NCBI GenBank assembly: GCA_934553285.1
Contig: CAKTFD010000001.1
Coordinates: forward strand, 33,475-97,474
Direction: 5' to 3'
Length of the DNA: 64,000 nucleotides
Source: an uncultured Faecalibacterium sp.
Lineage (GTDB): Bacteria; Bacillota; Clostridia; Oscillospirales; Ruminococcaceae
A model generated the notes under the pieces. It was given only the letters and a program-made list of their open reading frames with translations. It was not told where the DNA came from and searched no databases. Shown here in pieces: positions 4,037-64,000 of the stretch (position 1 is the stretch's first letter; every line of letters starts with the position of its first letter). Both the position numbers and the translations under genes were made by a program.

Positions 4037-4802
4037 TTTCGGATTCCTCCTGCTTGACCGGAAACAGAACTGCCGCTGCGCCGGAGATTGCCACTGTCAG
4101 AAGGATGGTGCGGCCGCCTTCGGAAAGCGCCGAGATGCCCGGCAGATAGTTGCACATAAAACTCAAGGCAAAACTGATGACGACCAAAGCCGCCACGGTG
4201 CCATTTTTGTGGGCGGGCGGGATGATGATAGCCAAAAACATGCCATACAGTGCCACACTCAAAGCACTGACCACCCGCAGCGGCAGAAGATTGCCCGCCA
4301 CGATGCCCAATGCCGTACCGGTCGCCCAGGCCGGAGCGGCCAACAAAATAGCGCCGTAAGTATAATATGGGTTCAGACTGCCCGGTCGTGCAATGGTGAT
4401 GCCAAAAAGTTCATCTGTGACATCATAACCGATCAGCAGCCGATGCCAGAAAGGCGTGCCAGGCGCAAAACGCTGTGCCAGCGCACAGCTCATTAGCAGA
4501 TAGCGTGCATTGGCGATCAATGTGATAACGGCAACCTCGAAATAGGTGGCATTTGCCATAATGAGCGCAAATGCAGCATACTCGCCTGCGGAGGCGTTGT
4601 TCAGCAGACTGACAAGAAACCCCTGAAACGGTGTGAACCCCGCCTTGCGGGCTGCAATGCCCAGTGAAAATGATACCGCAAAGTAGCCCAGCGCAATGGG
4701 TACACCATCCCGCATTCCATCGCAGAACACCTTACGGCTGAACCGATCGGCGCGTACGATCTGATCCGACTGCCGATCCAGAAGCTCCTGCTTCGATCCC
4801 AT
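4026..4802 (-). CDS. azlC: branched-chain amino acid permease AzlC
   Basis: ORF track 4026..4928 (300 aa). The internal ATG at 4802 (MGSKQELL...) is preceded by AGGAAAGGGG and matches the length of AzlC family membrane proteins. Confidence 0.8.
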   Translation of the reverse strand: MGSKQELLDRQSDQIVRADRFSRKVFCDGMRDGVPIALGYFAVSFSLGIAARKAGFTPFQGFLVSLLNNASAGEYAAFALIMANATYFEVAVITLIANARYLLMSCALAQRFAPGTPFWHRLLIGYDVTDELFGITIARPGSLNPYYTYGAILLAAPAWATGTALGIVAGNLLPLRVVSALSVALYGMFLAIIIPPAHKNGTVAALVVISFALSFMCNYLPGISALSEGGRTILLTVAISGAAAVLFPVKQEESENDA

Positions 4803-4894
4803 AGTTGATACTTCCCCTTTCCTCTTTTGCCAACAACAAAGCCTATTATACTCCACTCCGCGCAGAGAAGAAAGAGGTTCTTTGCTTTTTTGTG

Positions 4895-4934
4895 TAAAAC
4901 TGCCGAGTTCCGGCTCAATATCCGGCACTCAGCA
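4895..4934 (-). terminator. intrinsic terminator-like hairpin downstream of the RM operon
   Basis: Minus strand: CTGCTGAGTGCCGG-atattgag-CCGGAACTCGGCAG followed by TTTTA. It lies about 200 nt after the methyltransferase stop codon. Confidence 0.4.
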
Positions 4935-5137
4935 GTTCTTAGCGGGATTTTTATAGCAATTCAACTTTTTAATGCAACAGCGTTGAATTACATATCGCAA
5001 ATATGCTGCTTGAATGTTGCGCTAATTCTCAACTTGCGATAAATGTTGGAGTTATTCTAGGGCATTGGGGTAATATCAGGCAATCCGTAGCGGAACCTCT
5101 GCGAAGATTACAGATGATTTCTTACGTATTTTGATTT

Positions 5138-6766
5138 TCAGCTTCTTCCCAATCTTCTTCTCTGCATTTTTTTCCAGATTGCCCGGCACTGATCACATAC
5201 TTCTTGGTCAAGCCCCAGCATACCAACTAAAACTTCCCGATCGCCTATATCCAAGGCCTTCTCAATATCGCCATTCTCCCTGACGATCCGATCTATTTCA
5301 CTCAAGAGTTTCTCTCGGTATACTGCATCTATTCGTTCAATTTTAGGAAGCAATACTTTTCCGACCTCCGTGGGCAGAATTTCCAAAACGCCTCCACCGT
5401 AGCTTCTTCCGCAGATCTCAGTAAATGCGAACGATACACTATTATAGTATGCTAGCAGTATGTTTTCGGGGTCAACGCCCTCATTAAATTTTATTCTGTG
5501 CATTGTATCTGTGGAAACTGCTCCACATTGATTTAGAACAAACTTAGGATATAGATTATTGCGTCTTAGAAAAAAAGCATCTGGAACCCAAACGGATGGG
5601 ATAATATACCATCTGTCTCGAATTGAACATTTATATCCAGCATTTTCATTGTTTGCTTCTCCTTTTAAAATATAGTCCTTATAGTTTTCAGGATACTTTT
5701 CATATGGAATATTTTCCGGGAAGCAAACAAGCCTAGCTTGCTTCCCGGCTTGCTTATTGTAATTCCAATCTTGTTCGGTAAAATATATACCATGTGCATG
5801 CGAGCTTCTTCCAATTAAAGGCCGTGTTGCCTCCTCAAGATGATATTGGTTTGTTTTTTCTTCTGTTATAGAAAAGTATCCATTATTTCCGGTTGTAATT
5901 CCAATATTTATAAGTCCATAATCCGAAAACTCAGAAAAGCGATTATCCGATTTCAATTTCTGAATCAATTCGATTTCTTTTTCGCTTGTAAAATATTTAG
6001 TCCACTTTTCCCTAACGTGTTGCATAGGTTGAAAGCCATTAGAATTTAAGTTCAGAGTATCAAATCCACAAATATCTTGTAATTCAATAATCCGAATACC
6101 TTTTTCCTCTTTTCCTTTTTCGCCGATAAAAACGACTACCTCCTGCTCAATGTCAGGAAAAACAAGTTGTTCAAATGTAATAAGCGTAATTTTGGCAAGA
6201 TTATTTGCCAAATAGAGTCGAAGGTCTTCCGCATATGCAACTTGCAATATTTCTGCAGGAATGACAAATGCGATTTTACCTTTTTCCGAAAGAAGCTGAA
6301 TGCACGCCACCATAAACGCAACCCATGCATTTATCAGTTTGTTTGACTTCATTCCATGAGATTTTAAAATTTGTGCTTGATATTCTCGCTGTTTTTCCTG
6401 CAAGTATTGATAACGAATATATGGCGGGTTTCCAAGCACTAAATCATATGTTCTTTTTCCTAATGCTTCCCTATAGAAGTCAAAGAAATCCTCATTAAAA
6501 ACCTTTACCTTCGGAGTATTATCATATCTATCACGTACTTTTTTTGCTTCGCCTTCTTCTATTTCAACGGCTTCAACACTATGAATCTCACTCAGTAAGT
6601 GCAACTCACTCAATGCATCAAGAAAAACGCCGTCACCACAGCTTGGTTCCAACACACTGTTAATATCGTCAGTCTCGAAAAGGCGCACCATAGCAGTAGC
6701 CAGTTGTTGAGGCGTGTAATATGCTCCTCTTAACTTTTGTTCAGTACTATCCTTTTTGAGTTTCAT
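5138..6766 (-). CDS. N6-adenine DNA methyltransferase (gamma class; companion M.Eco57I-like enzyme of the Type IIG system)
   Basis: 542 aa. Motif X is YYTPQQLATAMVRLF; motif I (SAM binding) is LEPSCGDGVFL; motif IV is LGNPPY; the C-terminus is a target-recognition domain. The size matches M.Eco57I (about 543 aa). It lies 15 nt downstream of the R-M fusion gene, with a GAGAGG RBS. Confidence 0.85.
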   Translation of the reverse strand: MKLKKDSTEQKLRGAYYTPQQLATAMVRLFETDDINSVLEPSCGDGVFLDALSELHLLSEIHSVEAVEIEEGEAKKVRDRYDNTPKVKVFNEDFFDFYREALGKRTYDLVLGNPPYIRYQYLQEKQREYQAQILKSHGMKSNKLINAWVAFMVACIQLLSEKGKIAFVIPAEILQVAYAEDLRLYLANNLAKITLITFEQLVFPDIEQEVVVFIGEKGKEEKGIRIIELQDICGFDTLNLNSNGFQPMQHVREKWTKYFTSEKEIELIQKLKSDNRFSEFSDYGLINIGITTGNNGYFSITEEKTNQYHLEEATRPLIGRSSHAHGIYFTEQDWNYNKQAGKQARLVCFPENIPYEKYPENYKDYILKGEANNENAGYKCSIRDRWYIIPSVWVPDAFFLRRNNLYPKFVLNQCGAVSTDTMHRIKFNEGVDPENILLAYYNSVSFAFTEICGRSYGGGVLEILPTEVGKVLLPKIERIDAVYREKLLSEIDRIVRENGDIEKALDIGDREVLVGMLGLDQEVCDQCRAIWKKMQRRRLGRS

Positions 6767-6781
6767 CTAAAATAACCTCTC

Positions 6782-9769
6782 TTAAATTTCAAACCTGTAC
6801 ACCTTTTTGATCAGGTTCTGGATTTCGCCAATGAGCATATCTTTCTCATCCTGTAGCACAGAAATCACTCGTTTCGGTGGATGATCTTTAAGCTCTTCAT
6901 TTATGTTATAAATTCTGTGAGTATCCTCTATAACATTATTGTAAAGTGTTCGCTGCTTTACATCATCAAAATCCAGTTCCACAAATGGTAACGTTGACAA
7001 AACAAAAGTTCCTCGTGCTGTAAACCCATTTTCAAAATCACTTCCAACAATCCCCAAAATTCTTTCAGTAATAGGATTAGACAGCCAAGCCTGAATATAC
7101 TCTAATGCATACGGGCTTTCAGACTTTTTAGACACAGCACAATAACCTGCCGTTCCGCCTGATGCAATCAACATATCATTTGTATCTAGCGCGTACATTG
7201 GTTCCTTACTCAAAACTCCAACGATCAGCTTTGGGGTGTCTATAAATGCAGTCAATGCTTGTGTTCTCCCATACTGATACCATGAATCCGCTGTTGCATT
7301 CGGAACATCTCTGGTACCTTGGCTCGACACGCATTTTGGAACGAGACGATCATAGTAATCTTTCAGATAGTTAAATGCTCCTGGAAAATGAGATTCCATG
7401 CATTCAACTGAAAGCAGCTTTCCTTGTTTATCATAAGGGAAAATAATCCACTTATCTGTTGCCAAAGTACTATACGAGTTTAACCCCTTCTCGGCCCTTT
7501 TTGTGGGTTTAAAATACGGACGTAAAATTTTACGTTCGATTTTGTATTCTTTTCCGTTCCGAAAGATTCTAATTGTAGCATGATTCTCATCTAAAATCTC
7601 ATCTGAAGAAAACCAATAGACTGGTTTAGGACGCTCTGCACTCGTTTGAATCCCATTAAAAATATCAACATATTTTGTAATAGGAACTGCCACTTGATCT
7701 ATTTTATAAAGCATGGACAAAAACTCAAAATCTGTTGTGAGCCGCCACGGCAATCTATTTAGAATCGTAGATTTAAATTCAATTGTCTCTATTTTTTCGC
7801 CGAGCCACAGTTTATCCGCAGAATCAACACCTGTATAAGAAAATTTTTCCTGTGGCTGTTTGCACAATAACAAGATTGAGCTATAAATCGTTTTATCTTC
7901 AAATAACTGTGCATCTCCAAAGTCGTCCAAACTTACAAGATGCTTTCCCTCTGCAATCAAATTCCGAAGATATTCTCCTGCACCAACCTTAAAAAACTTA
8001 TTCGGCACAATGTAACAAATATATCCACCATCTTTTGTTTTTCTGATAGCTTGCTCTATAAAAATGAAGTATTTATCAAATTGCTTATATGCTGTTCTAT
8101 ACTTTTTCCTGTAGATCTCGACCTCACTACTTGGAAGAAGCGCATGCATATCTTCTGTACTCACATATGGAGGATTTCCGATTATTACATCAAAAGATTC
8201 TCCTCCATTGATTTTTTCCCAATCAAAAGGAACTAAGTCCAATCGCTGATTTTCTGAATTTAAAATGCCCTGCATCTCCTTCTCGCTTACAAGAGCATTC
8301 CCAAAGAAAATGTTCGTACTTAAATCAGGAAGAATATGTTTCACCAAAGCCACAGACGGTGCAGTTTCGTCTTCAATCAATTTAATAAGCAATGAAAATT
8401 TTGCAACCTCTACAGCATGAATATCAATATCGATGCCGTATATACAAGAACATAGAATCTCTTTCTTTTCTGAAATGGGAAGTTTGTATACATGATTTCC
8501 GATTTCCTCCAGATGTTCTTTTTGTCCTGCATTCAAATACCATTGCACACAATAATTTTGAAGATATGAAAAAGCCTCTTCCAAAAAGACACCTGACCCA
8601 CATGCAATGTCTGCGATTCGGATTTTCAGCAAATCTTTTGGTGTTTTCCCAGCACACGCTTTTGCCAGTGTTTTCTCAATCATATATTTAACAATTTCGG
8701 TTGGCGTTGTAACTATAGAGCGATTTATACACTCTTTCTTTTGTTGTAACCCAATACTTCCATCTTTCAAGACAACAAGCTGTTCCGTTAAAAACAACTC
8801 ATAAATTTTACCCAAAAGATGTGGCTCGATAATGTTAAAAAGATATGGACTCTGTGGGTAGTACAGTCCTTCAATCATCTCCGAGATCACATCACACGAC
8901 AAATCAAAAATAATATCATCGCCAGAAAACATGCCAGAGTTATATCTATGATCTGCCAATCTAAAAAGCTGTTCTAGCTGTTCTTTTAACTGTGATTTAT
9001 CTATAATTGTTTCTTTCAAATTATGATAAAGCGGGAGATTTTTATCCTCACAAATTCTCAGAAACACAATTTGGTTAATAAATTCCTGCACGACATCATT
9101 TAAAACTTCCAGAGATTTATATCTACCACCTTTACAGTACAGTTCATTACTAAGTGCTACCCGCCATCCATTGATTTGAGATAAGAACATCTCATCAACT
9201 TGTTGTATCTGCGCACCTGCTTCTAAAGACCCATTATTTATATTTTTATCAAACTCACCCGAATATACTGTATCCCTTGAAATCAAGTCCTTGATCTCAT
9301 TGAATTTTTCTATATATTCAGTATAATGATATAATCTGTATCGCGCAGTCGCACAATCATCTTCCTCATTTGGCAAATAACAAGTATCATAAACGGCTAA
9401 GTACTCAAAATTTGTTAAAATGGCAATTCTATGCTTTGCATTCCAACCATATTTTCTTGTTTGGAAAGCTGGTGCTCCCGTCTTTGTAATATCTACAGAT
9501 GGTTTCTTTGCTTCAACAAAAAATTTTGCAACGCCTCTTAGCGTCATCGTATAATCTGGACGATCCGAATGGCTCGAATAATTTTCTGCTATTACCTCTC
9601 TATACTGGGGAGCAACACCTTTCTCATTGGCTACATCCCAACCCAAAAATTTGAGAAAAGGATCAACAAACTCAATCCTACAAGAGTGTTCATTATAATT
9701 CTGTTTTGCATCCTTATAATAACTCAGGTTCGCACTAAATTGTTCTACCAGACGTTGTAGTTCGTTCAT
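6782..9769 (-). CDS. Type IIG (Eco57I/AcuI-family) bifunctional restriction endonuclease-methyltransferase
   Basis: ORF track 6782..9778 (998 aa, GTG start). The likely start is the ATG at 9769, preceded by AAAGGTG. The N-terminal sequence RPDYTMTLRGVAKFFVEAKK gives an exact PD-X13-EAK nuclease motif as in Eco57I. It is followed by gamma-class methyltransferase motifs: motif X TPTEIVKYMIEK, motif I DIACGSGVFL, motif IV IGNPPY, then a C-terminal target-recognition domain. The size matches R.Eco57I (997 aa). Confidence 0.85.
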   Translation of the reverse strand: MNELQRLVEQFSANLSYYKDAKQNYNEHSCRIEFVDPFLKFLGWDVANEKGVAPQYREVIAENYSSHSDRPDYTMTLRGVAKFFVEAKKPSVDITKTGAPAFQTRKYGWNAKHRIAILTNFEYLAVYDTCYLPNEEDDCATARYRLYHYTEYIEKFNEIKDLISRDTVYSGEFDKNINNGSLEAGAQIQQVDEMFLSQINGWRVALSNELYCKGGRYKSLEVLNDVVQEFINQIVFLRICEDKNLPLYHNLKETIIDKSQLKEQLEQLFRLADHRYNSGMFSGDDIIFDLSCDVISEMIEGLYYPQSPYLFNIIEPHLLGKIYELFLTEQLVVLKDGSIGLQQKKECINRSIVTTPTEIVKYMIEKTLAKACAGKTPKDLLKIRIADIACGSGVFLEEAFSYLQNYCVQWYLNAGQKEHLEEIGNHVYKLPISEKKEILCSCIYGIDIDIHAVEVAKFSLLIKLIEDETAPSVALVKHILPDLSTNIFFGNALVSEKEMQGILNSENQRLDLVPFDWEKINGGESFDVIIGNPPYVSTEDMHALLPSSEVEIYRKKYRTAYKQFDKYFIFIEQAIRKTKDGGYICYIVPNKFFKVGAGEYLRNLIAEGKHLVSLDDFGDAQLFEDKTIYSSILLLCKQPQEKFSYTGVDSADKLWLGEKIETIEFKSTILNRLPWRLTTDFEFLSMLYKIDQVAVPITKYVDIFNGIQTSAERPKPVYWFSSDEILDENHATIRIFRNGKEYKIERKILRPYFKPTKRAEKGLNSYSTLATDKWIIFPYDKQGKLLSVECMESHFPGAFNYLKDYYDRLVPKCVSSQGTRDVPNATADSWYQYGRTQALTAFIDTPKLIVGVLSKEPMYALDTNDMLIASGGTAGYCAVSKKSESPYALEYIQAWLSNPITERILGIVGSDFENGFTARGTFVLSTLPFVELDFDDVKQRTLYNNVIEDTHRIYNINEELKDHPPKRVISVLQDEKDMLIGEIQNLIKKVYRFEI

Positions 9770-9851
9770 CCTATTCACCTTTTAGTCCATCATTTTTCTT
9801 TTCGCTCAGATATACACCTATTCATTACACAGGATATTGTAGTACCTTTTA

Positions 9852-9880
9852 ATTATATTCGCTTAAAAGAACTCTGTCAA
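9852..9880 (-). promoter_or_regulatory. consensus sigma-70 promoter driving the RM operon (TTGACA-17bp-TATAAT)
   Basis: Minus strand: TTGACA (9880-9875), the 17-nt spacer gagttcttttaagcgaa, then TATAAT (9857-9852), about 75 nt upstream of the R-M gene start. Confidence 0.65.
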
Positions 9881-10023
9881 TTATAACATCTACTGCCTAA
9901 ACAATCTGGAATTTCCGAATGGTTGTGAATTGGCTAGAGGCTCTGACCTCCCCGGAGGAAAAAAACCATGATACTGGTTTGATTCTGCTCGGGGGTATTA
10001 CTTTTCTGCTACTTTGGGCGCAA

Positions 10024-10068
10024 AACAGCCCCGCCTTCAAGCGAAATCTCTTGAAAACGGGGCTGCTT
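10024..10068 (-). terminator. intrinsic terminator of guaA
   Basis: CAGCCCCGCCTTCAAG-cgaaat-CTCTTGAAAACGGGGCTG stem-loop. On the minus strand it is followed by TTTTGCG, about 60 nt after the guaA stop. Confidence 0.55.
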
Positions 10069-10126
10069 TTATGCGTTGCTGTGTTCTATTTTTCGAAGGT
10101 CTAAAAAGTCGGAAGGCAAATTTTCA

Positions 10127-11677
10127 TTACTCGAGCTCGATGGTTGCAGGCGGCTTACCGGTGCAATCATAGAATACGCGGTTAACGTGTTTGACCTCGT
10201 TGACGATGCGGCTGGTGACGGTGCCCAGAACATCCCAGGGCATGTCATAGCTTTCTGCAGTCATAAAGTCGGTGGTGGTCACGGCACGCAGGGCAACCGC
10301 ATAATCGTAGGTGCGCTCGTCGCCCATAACGCCAACGCTGTGCATGTTGGTCAGAGCAGCGTAATACTGGCTGATTTCCTTATCCAGACCTGCCTTGGCA
10401 ATCTCCTCGCGCCAGATAGCATCGGCATCCTGCACGATGGTCACCTTCTCGGGGGTCACTTCGCCGATGATGCGGATGCCCAGACCGGGGCCGGGGAACG
10501 GCTGACGGCTGACCAGATACTCGGGCAGGCCCAGCTCACGGCCGGCCTGACGCACTTCGTCCTTGAACAGGTTGCGCAGCGGCTCCACCAGCTCCTTAAA
10601 GTCCACGGTATCGGGCAGGCCGCCCACATTGTGGTGACTCTTGATGACGGTGGACTCGCCGCCCAGACCGCTTTCCACCACATCGGGATAGATGGTGCCC
10701 TGTGCCAGGAAGTCTACCTTGCCGATCTTCTTGGCTTCTTCCTCAAATACACGGATGAACTCTTCGCCAATGATCTTGCGTTTGCGCTCCGGCTCGGTAA
10801 CGCCTTTCAGCTTGCGGAAATAGCGGTCGCGGGCGTCCACGCAGATAAAGTTGATGTCAAAGCCGTTGGCATTGCCGGGGCCAAAAACAGAGCAGACTTC
10901 TTCCTTTTCATTCTTACGCAGCAGGCCGTGATCCACAAACACACAGGTGAGCTGCTTGCCGATGGCCTTGGCCAGCATGGCTGCCAGCACAGAGGAATCC
11001 ACACCGCCGGAAAGCGCACACAGGACCTTACCCTCGCCAATGCGCTCCCGCAATGCCTTGACATTGTTCTCCACAAAAGAGTCCATCTTCCAGTCGCCGC
11101 TGCAGCCGCACACATTGTATACGAAGTTGCGCAGCATTTTTTTGCCCTCAGCGGTATGCAGAACCTCCGGATGAAACTGCACTGCGTACAGGCCCTTTTC
11201 TGCATTTTCCACAGCCGCTACCGGGCAGTTAACCGTATGCGCAGTGATCTGGAAGCCGGGAGCAGCCTGCTCGATATAGTCGTTGTGGCTCATCCAGCAG
11301 ATGGTAGAGGGCTGCACATCGGTAAACAGCTTGCTCTCGGTGTTTACAAACACCTCGGTCTTGCCGTACTCGCGCTCGGGTGCACGGCAGACATGACCGC
11401 CCAGCAGGTGCATCATCAGCTGACTGCCGTAGCAGATGCCCAGCACAGGCACGCCCCAGGTAAAGATCTCGGGATCGATGGTGGGAGAATCCTCCAGATA
11501 AACACTGTTGGGGCCGCCGGTGAAGATGATGCCTTTGGGATTCTTGGCCTTGATGACCGACAGGTCGGTTTTATAGGAATAGATCTCGCAGTAGACATTA
11601 TTTTCTCGGACGCGGCGGGCAATCAGCTGATTGTACTGGCCGCCAAAGTCCAGCACGATGACAGTTTCATGCTGCAT
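10127..11677 (-). CDS. guaA: GMP synthase (glutamine-hydrolysing)
   Basis: A GATase1 domain and an ATP-pyrophosphatase domain ([15 protein letters not shown]-loop motif). The ATG at 11677 ([15 protein letters not shown]) is preceded by GGAGG; the upstream ATG at 11692 overlaps that RBS. Confidence 0.95.
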
Positions 11678-63772: not shown

Positions 63773-64000
63773 AATAGTTTCCTCCACATCGTCTGTTTTT
63801 ATGGCGGCAGAGCCTTTTATCCATTATAAAAGGTGTTTTGCAGCAAGTCAATGCAGAAGCCGCAGTTTTTCGTCATCTGCAGAAAAGCCGCCCCCCTGCA
63901 CAGGATGCAAAATGGGCCATTGCACAAAACGATGTACAATGGCCCATACTTATAGCAATTCAACTTTTTATAGCAGTTTGCGTTTTTAATGCACAAGCAA

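Follow-up and report, generated by a model that had tools for sequence, protein, structure and literature searches.

The Type IIG restriction-modification (R-M) systems closest to the locus described here are Eco57I, AcuI and Cac824II. Eco57I of E. coli and AcuI of Acinetobacter calcoaceticus both recognise CTGAAG and cut at 16/14. Eco57I is a 997-aa enzyme that methylates one strand and cuts at 16/14, and its companion M.Eco57I recognises CTNNAG on both strands, so that members of the family can diversify only in the central 2 bp, with altered-central-base relatives such as BpmI at CTGGAG known to exist (Loenen et al., PMC3874165). Cac824II of Clostridium acetobutylicum (CA_C3535/CA_C3534) is a 993-aa enzyme with its methyltransferase gene directly downstream, which was found experimentally to be an AcuI isoschizomer (CTGAAG) at just 44–46% identity to AcuI and Eco57I, and whose deletion raised transformation ~8-fold (PMC4736252). 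Here, a 64,000-nt stretch from an uncultured Faecalibacterium sp. (contig CAKTFD010000001.1, positions 33,475 to 97,474; hereafter the window) was analyzed, which harbors, between guaA and azlC, an AT-rich island with a gene for a large nuclease-methyltransferase fusion protein (R) and a gene for a separate methyltransferase (M). We hold with high confidence that this island is a horizontally acquired and chromosomally fixed Type IIG R-M cassette of the Eco57I/AcuI/Cac824II family, with CTGAAG as its likeliest site and with a regulator that has decayed.

On the basis of sequence and profile matches, both proteins are distant but genuine members of the Eco57I/AcuI/Cac824II type, possessing the PD-X13-EAK nuclease, the gamma-class methyltransferase of the Eco57I model, the fused C-terminal target-recognition domain (TRD) and the separate M with the M.Eco57I C-terminal domain. 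Full-length relatives at 35–46% identity were obtained by tblastn against plasmids. In the comparison, Eco57I was represented by the locus of E. coli plasmid p124_C (L098; comparison loci are given by L numbers) and AcuI was approximated by an A. baumannii plasmid locus (L099). A search with the p124_C protein for an entry named R.Eco57I returned generic names only; its methyltransferase scores 611 bits on M_Eco57I_C, and the p124_C locus is therefore considered a close proxy for Eco57I. This locus comprises a 998-aa R and a convergent 541-aa M preceded by a 62-aa open reading frame (ORF), and the A. baumannii locus has the same kind of layout, with R of 997 aa and M of 541 aa. Though the R proteins of these two loci are 71% identical to each other, each shares only 37–38% with the window R (38% for the E. 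coli proxy and 37% for A. baumannii), with 43% in the nuclease, 44–45% in the methyltransferase and 28% in the TRD, while the M proteins share 34% and 32%, respectively. The gene order also differs, being convergent in the E. coli and Acinetobacter loci and tandem in the window, where R is followed by M on one strand; however, Cac824II is tandem too, so the archetypal convergent order, absent from the window, does not define the family. Cac824II, a Firmicute system with a tandem downstream M, is the best organisational match to the window, judging by its published description. A further difference lies in the small ORF, which in E. coli is of 62 aa, belongs to no Pfam family and precedes M, whereas in the clade of the window a HTH_17 (helix-turn-helix, HTH) gene precedes R. 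The conserved 62-aa ORF, MAKGESGRIVLEV..., overlaps the start of M (8682–8870 in L098 and 8710–8898 in L099) without any Pfam match, and may be the regulator of that clade.

The island is clearly set apart from its surroundings by composition. The GC content, calculated in 500-nt windows, is 0.34–0.41 from ~5250 to 10000 and 0.55–0.61 in the flanks; the segment 4900–10126 has 37.3% GC against 58.7% in the remaining window, and the 5-kb window with the lowest value (0.371) falls short of the others by more than 10 standard deviations (SD) (median 0.583, SD 0.020). The GC content at third codon positions (GC3) is 0.31 and 0.32 in the island genes, compared with 0.73 in guaA and 0.61 in azlC, and no 1-kb block below 0.50 GC was found in the window outside the island. 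The flanks were identified by Pfam as azlC/azlD (PF03591/PF05437) and guaA (GATase and GMP_synt_C). Exactly two long ORFs are contained in the island, both on the minus strand and separated by 15 nt that include a GAGAGG ribosome-binding site. For R, the ATG start, three codons in, is preferred by gene callers on identical metagenome contigs. The principal features, in window coordinates, are:

4900..10125, no strand: AT-rich insert of 5226 bp relative to the empty guaA-azlC spacer, from comparison with L005/L006
5138..6766, minus strand: separate gamma-class N6-adenine (N6A) methyltransferase gene, 542 aa, with its own ribosome-binding site GAGAGG
6782..9778, minus strand: Type IIG R-M fusion gene, 998 aa (GTG at 9778) or 995 aa (ATG at 9769)
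9771..9825, minus strand: remnant of a 61-aa HTH_17 gene, start ATGAATAGG..., with a 120-nt internal deletion at 9812/9811
9852..9880, minus strand: sigma-70 consensus promoter TTGACA-17-TATAAT, with the decayed operator palindrome TTCTTTTAAGCGAA in its spacer

Most of what an earlier sequence-only reading of this DNA had described is in agreement with these data, namely the GC drop between azlC and guaA (37.3% vs 58.7%, with the flank genes confirmed by Pfam), the two minus-strand genes of 995–998 aa and 542 aa lying 15 nt apart, and the motifs it quoted, all of which are present verbatim in both proteins. Its assignment to the Eco57I/AcuI family of Type IIG systems is borne out by Pfam matches above the cut-offs (Eco57I, HSDR_N and M_Eco57I_C) and by end-to-end PADLOC matches, and the 997 aa it gave for R.Eco57I is the published length (PMC3874165). 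The island it placed at 4935–10020 exists, with borders that the empty-site comparison moves to 4900..10125; the likeness to Eco57I is one of family membership by Pfam and PADLOC and not of near-identity, at 37–38% overall.

The large protein is divided into four modules:

residues ~1–170: PD-X13-EAK nuclease
residues ~171–345: helical linker
residues ~346–650: gamma N6A methyltransferase
residues ~651–998: TRD

The sequence RPDYTMTLRGVAKFFVEAKK at residues 73–92 contains P74-D75-X13-E89-A90-K91, corresponding to PD77-78-X13-EAK92-94 in the L098 and L099 proteins (PD at 74–75 in the window); in Eco57I itself, a catalytic role of D78, E92 and K94 was reportedly established by Rimseliene and Janulaitis in 2001. 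The methyltransferase motifs are TPTEIVKYMIEK (motif X) at 358, DIACGSGVFL at 390 and GNPPY at 534. With Pfam, HSDR_N was matched at residues 28–132 (32 bits vs a cut-off of 25), Eco57I PF07669 at 131 bits (cut-off 25.3), N6_Mtase PF02384 at 44 bits and MmeI_Mtase at 43.8 bits, and with PADLOC the protein is an end-to-end match to REase_MTase_IIG PDLC03604 (871 bits). When 27 homologues of two clades were aligned, P74, D75, E89, A90, K91, T358-P359, D390-G396 and G534-Y538 proved invariant, and so did several blocks of the TRD (family-conserved stretches are NGIQTSA 708–714, WY.YGR 833–838 and SGGTAGY 873–879), a region (~651–998) that no Pfam model covers. In the Protein Data Bank, sequence relatives were detected only for the methyltransferase parts (CamA, M.BseCI and M.TaqI). 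The AlphaFold model of the large protein has a mean predicted local distance difference test score (pLDDT) of 73 and a predicted template-modelling score (pTM) of 0.64; with Foldseek, its methyltransferase and TRD half matched CamA and M.BseCI (E ~1e-27 and ~1e-22), and superposition of this half on the DNA-bound CamA and M.BseCI gave target-normalised TM-scores of 0.55–0.65.

Full-length Foldseek matches of the model were obtained with BpuSI (3S1S), MmeI (5HR4), DrdV (7LO5) and BREX PglX, with E values of 1e-20 to 1e-14. These proteins have the same domain order as the window R but identities of just 11–14%, and MmeI-type enzymes have no separate methyltransferase, whereas the window has one. 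Membership of the MmeI type was considered and rejected. BREX PglX was likewise rejected (61.6 bits in NCBIfam vs a cut-off of 500, with no BREX neighbour genes), and so was MADS (NCBIfam score below threshold and no MADS neighbours); the NCBIfam matches of the island proteins, to BREX, MADS and HemK-type models, were all below threshold.

The separate 542-aa methyltransferase carries YYTPQQ at 16, EPSCGDGVFL at 40 and GNPPY at 112. It matches N6_Mtase, Eco57I and M_Eco57I_C PF22837 (122 bits vs a cut-off of 27) in Pfam and MTase_II PDLC03267 over positions 1–541 (596 bits) in PADLOC, and it has sequence matches to the structures of M.BseCI and M.TaqI. Both genes are under purifying selection: the ratio of nonsynonymous to synonymous substitution rates (dN/dS) is 0.087 for R against L004, a 90% homologue, with 0.072 in the nuclease domain and 0.13 within the lineage, and 0.069 for M against L004, with 0.19 within the lineage.

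By analogy with Eco57I, the fusion enzyme, acting as a monomer, would bind an asymmetric 6-bp site and methylate one adenine on one strand, while its nuclease, stimulated by S-adenosylmethionine, would cut unmodified foreign DNA ~16/14 nt to one side. The separate methyltransferase would modify both strands, at CTNNAG-type sequences as M.Eco57I does, and would give the host DNA its real protection. It might be argued instead that the nuclease is inactive and that the locus is kept as a methyltransferase pair with an epigenetic or anti-restriction role and not for defence, given that the HTH regulator has decayed, that the island is old enough for fixation in its lineage, and that companion methyltransferases modify both strands, which has prompted suggestions of another role for the methylation by the fusion protein (PMC3874165). 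However, PD-X13-EAK is intact and invariant, the nuclease domain is as constrained as the dN/dS above indicates, and the under-representation of the putative site in host DNA, presented below, is what an active and imperfectly controlled nuclease is expected to cause; a loss of nuclease activity is therefore regarded as improbable.

That the island was acquired horizontally and became fixed in the chromosome of a Faecalibacterium lineage is supported by comparison of the locus with its relatives. The window GuaA shares 99% identity with the GuaA proteins of F. prausnitzii ATCC 27768 and a Faecalibacterium metagenome-assembled genome (MAG), in both of which guaA and azlC lie ~240 bp apart with no R-M genes between them (in an exact-protein look-up of GuaA, matches were obtained with the 516-aa start and none with the 521-aa start). 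In the species-level relatives L005 and L006, homology to the window breaks off at 10126, a single base after the guaA stop codon, and restarts at 4899, with ~141 bp in the place of the 5226-bp insert; two more such relatives, L008 and L009, harbor no cassette copy near guaA, to which azlC is not adjacent there. At least four other metagenome samples of the lineage yielded contigs with the filled locus at the same site, 98–100% identical. Between the window and one lineage contig, L001, each of the two island genes has a synonymous divergence (dS) of 0.036, the values for guaA and azlC being 0.046 and 0.041, and this closeness of cassette and flanks fits one acquisition followed by vertical descent.

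Outside this lineage, homologues of the cassette at 71–90% identity were located on mobilizable elements, some of them at guaA. On L004, a 10-kb contig with flanks of 56% GC, both genes are 88.7% identical at the nucleotide level over exactly window 9788..5137 and adjoin a Mob_Pre relaxase gene. Homologues of 78–79% identity sit in elements with genes for a tyrosine integrase, a NikA-like protein and an AAA_25 protein, and in L088–L097 and L106–L110 integrase/NikA-like/AAA_25/DUF6061 elements at the guaA 3′ end carry the R-M cassette as cargo. These guaA elements carry a 12–13-nt repeat of the guaA 3′ end at their far side and CGAGTGGGAAT(A/G)A at both ends, and in L088–L097 and L110 the integrase, the mobilisation genes and the attachment-site (att) repeats of the guaA 3′ end are all present. 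Their additional defence cargo is variable and includes GmrSD_N with HEPN and Mrr_cat, HamA with a helicase (Hachiman-like) and OLD-TOPRIM with UvrD (Gabija-like). In Alloscardovia omnicolens, the cassette was found at 71% identity in another variable region. As for the insertion site, guaA is a documented integrase target of integrative and mobilizable elements (IMEs) (PMC5357655).

It is in view of these relatives that an ancestral origin of the AT-rich segment in Faecalibacterium, with deletion in ATCC 27768 and other species, appears extremely improbable. Such an account can draw on the lack of a target-site duplication or integrase marking an insertion, and on the ~141 bp of the relatives' spacer being unrelated to the window and not the window spacer minus the insert; it is opposed by the GC3 of 0.31 against 0.6–0.73 in neighbouring genes, by the 88.7% identical cassette beside a relaxase gene in an unrelated context and the 78% copy within integrase-bearing elements, by the short guaA-azlC spacer in L005 and L006, and by L008 and L009, without a cassette near guaA. 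Horizontal acquisition, which the sequence-only reading had also advanced, is thus upheld by the empty site in ATCC 27768 and the MAG and by the cassettes beside relaxase and integrase genes in unrelated genomes, and the comparison with related genomes that it had called for yielded the island-free spacer of L005 and L006. Its view of the island as the strongest candidate for strain-specific accessory DNA has to be given up, because the other metagenome samples, four or more, have the island at this very site.

By analogy with the mobile homologues, the cassette very likely came on a mobilizable element, whose mobility genes would all have been lost since arrival; judging from its position, an element targeting guaA is possible, at a little under even confidence. 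At the island borders, a search for direct and inverted repeats yielded short chance-level pairs only, and GAGTGGGAATRA, the guaA-type att core of the related elements, was not found in the window beyond chance. No ORF of integrase, relaxase or NikA type lies between guaA and azlC, so that the features of an IME at guaA are absent from this spacer. When the non-coding ends of the island were compared with all fetched loci by blastn and tblastx, only the promoter block was matched. No tRNA genes were detected anywhere in the window, and the island is therefore without a tRNA integration target.

The promoter at 9880..9852 is the sole 12/12 consensus match in the region, and a block of 34 nt enclosing it has 91% identity among cassettes whose coding DNA is only 73% identical. 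In relatives with an intact HTH gene, the spacer that separates the -35 and -10 boxes contains the perfect palindrome TTCGTTTAAACGAA, whereas the window palindrome TTCTTTTAAGCGAA has two mismatches. An intact 61-aa HTH gene, MNGYITVQEAAEKWG..., was observed together with the perfect palindrome in five loci (L004, L086, L088, L093 and L110); this gene is the first in the operon and overlaps the R start by 8 nt, and the L088 protein scores 28.3 bits on HTH_17 against a cut-off of 27. The window has kept no more of this gene than its first 14 nt and its 3′ end, while the sister contigs L001–L003 harbor a frameshifted HTH pseudogene that is 120 nt longer than the window remnant. An HTH pseudogene and a degenerate palindrome were also found in L106–L109, an independent lineage (module coordinates are 2457–2719 in L004, 9750–10008 in L086, L088 and L110, and ~590–890 in L106). 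Gene and palindrome have hence degenerated jointly in two independent lineages, the window with L001–L003 and L106–L109, and from this joint decay we infer a C-protein-like controller that binds the palindrome.

In controller (C-protein) Type II R-M systems, such as C.PvuII and C.AhdI, an Xre-type HTH protein binds operators at its own promoter. The mobile relatives of the window resemble these systems in that their operon begins with a small HTH gene, translationally coupled to R through the 8-nt overlap, and their promoter contains a perfect palindrome, though their regulator is of the HTH_17/excisionase type and not of the Xre type; the window itself has lost this arrangement, with the gene deleted and two mismatches in the palindrome, and the relatives retain it. 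Based on this layout, the HTH protein of the relatives probably binds the palindrome in the promoter spacer, and such a controller would be dispensable after establishment. Since the regulator of the window has decayed, expression of its cassette is probably constitutive: R and M would be co-transcribed from the single strong consensus sigma-70 promoter, seemingly without regulation.

Evidence on the recognition sequence was obtained from hexamer usage, with maximal-order Markov expectations for 2080 hexamers in the 58.8 kb of the window outside the island. CTGAAG/CTTCAG occurs 8 times in this host part against 23.7 expected, ranking 14 of 2080 among the most depleted hexamers, whereas four island-free Faecalibacterium relatives (70.9 kb) contain 52 CTGAAG sites against 56.1 expected. 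When the counts were compared directly with those in the island-free relatives, CTGAAG ranked 3/2080 in differential depletion (Fisher p = 1.3e-7), and it is the sole one of the 10 CTNNAG hexamers with a lineage-specific depletion. At aligned positions, the window has kept just one of 10–11 CTGAAG sites of the relatives, compared with 46–47% for all hexamers (binomial p ~0.01), and the replacements are mostly single-base (CTGAAA and CTA/CTC/CTTAAG). Six further contigs of the lineage, with 98.8–100% identity and reaching beyond the window, contain 0.06–0.16 CTGAAG sites per kb, compared with 0.65–0.98 in the relatives. The k-mer check for CTGAAG that had been proposed from the sequence alone, applied to the window and lineage contigs, thus gave an under-representation of ~3-fold in this lineage only. 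We consider CTGAAG the probable recognition site, the remaining probability going to another CTNNAG hexamer or to other sequences. Within the island, the only CTGAAG is at 7603–7608, inside the R gene; the L086 and L088 cassettes have none and that of L004 has one. A literature search on Faecalibacterium and CTGAAG returned primer sequences only.

Several observations count against the reading of the island as an acquired, active Eco57I-type cassette specific for CTGAAG. The flanks of the other hosts with 71–79% homologues are not depleted, with 39 CTGAAG sites against 45.5 expected, for which a recent arrival on mobile elements would account. At 28% identity of the TRD to the E. coli and Acinetobacter proteins, the alignment indicates that specificity is not transferable by homology. 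The lineage also lacks CACGTC, GRGCYC, AAGCTT and CGTCTC, which implies that other R-M systems are carried or were met, one of which could target CTGAAG. At the island borders, an att repeat, an integrase and a relaxase remnant are undetectable, which makes the route of entry a matter of conjecture, and in the AlphaFold model the pLDDT falls below 50 across residues 50–88, the catalytic PD included. The undepleted hosts, the divergent TRD and the several other strongly avoided motifs would all suit a functional family member with a different site (CTGGAG, CTTGAG or an unrelated one), the depletion of CTGAAG then being due to another R-M system, past or present, and enzymes with altered central bases do exist, BpmI at CTGGAG being an example (PMC3874165). 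Yet CTGAAG stands alone among the CTNNAG hexamers in a depletion specific to the lineage with the island, CTGGAG is just as low in the island-free relatives (0.70 vs 0.74), and Cac824II has retained CTGAAG at 44–46% identity to Eco57I and AcuI (PMC4736252), so that a different site is considered unlikely, though not negligibly so.

With CTGAAG as the preferred site, a more far-reaching proposal can be put forward tentatively, and we have doubts about it: a constitutive Eco57I-type enzyme, after fixation and loss of the HTH gene, may itself have purged CTGAAG 3- to 5-fold across the species through low-level self-restriction, mostly by synonymous changes, and the HTH_17 gene with its palindrome may form an undescribed controller module of Type IIG systems, needed for establishment and dispensable later. 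Faecalibacterium is hard to manipulate genetically, and an active Type IIG enzyme that cuts CTGAAG, if this is indeed its site, would hinder transformation as Cac824II does in C. acetobutylicum; vectors stripped of CTGAAG or methylated beforehand could then evade the barrier. From the evolutionary side, the locus illustrates the life cycle of a defence cassette, from cargo of a mobile element through chromosomal fixation to the loss of mobility genes and regulator, along with a possible imprint on the oligonucleotide usage of the host. Neither point alters what is known of the enzyme family; what is added here are its mobile relatives, a module of HTH gene and palindrome that has decayed, and a depletion of CTGAAG specific to the lineage.

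Other motifs differ between the lineage (host part of the window and L100–L105) and the island-free relatives as well, with counts of 0 vs 29 for CACGTC/GACGTG, 0 vs 28 for GAGCCC/GGGCTC and 0 vs 20 for AAGCTT. In the lineage, GGGCCC was absent (15.8 expected), GAGCTC occurred twice (31 expected) and CGTCTC/GAGACG was absent (12.4 expected), and ATTCTG/CAGAAT was counted 3 times, compared with 22 in L006. This suggests that further R-M systems (GRGCYC-, HindIII- and Esp3I-like, among others) are encoded elsewhere in the genome. In a crude check of the window for further defence systems, no other ORF of ≥120 aa with a (D/N/S)PP(Y/F/W) motif or low GC3 was found.

Two comparison loci showed additional peculiarities. 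L004 contains, at 7349–8272, a 307-aa low-GC ORF that the window lacks; it overlaps the methyltransferase gene at the end of the latter, and neither Pfam nor NCBIfam gave a match to it. L009 (CAVEID010000031.1) is filed as 'Oxalobacter sp.', though its GuaA is 95% identical to that of Faecalibacterium and its neighbour gene is Faecalibacterium-like; a binning error probably underlies this public label.

No Rfam match to RNA families was obtained in 4700–10300. Two minor features of the non-coding ends of the island complete the map:

10022..10069, minus strand: hairpin and T-run that terminate guaA, from inverted repeat I6, the terminator scan and sequence comparison
4951..4971, plus strand: 21-nt sequence TTATAGCAATTCAACTTTTTA, with an exact second copy at 63950–63970

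The hairpin is unlike the guaA terminator of the island-free relatives and therefore belongs to the replaced DNA. The 21-nt sequence TTATAGCAATTCAACTTTTTA has two exact copies in the window against 0.01 expected, and a weaker similarity runs on 3′ of the repeat. Its first copy lies within the island, 3′ of the methyltransferase gene, as part of a AATTCAAC...GTTGAATT hairpin, and the second is located in a conserved core intergenic region upstream of a 113-aa gene.

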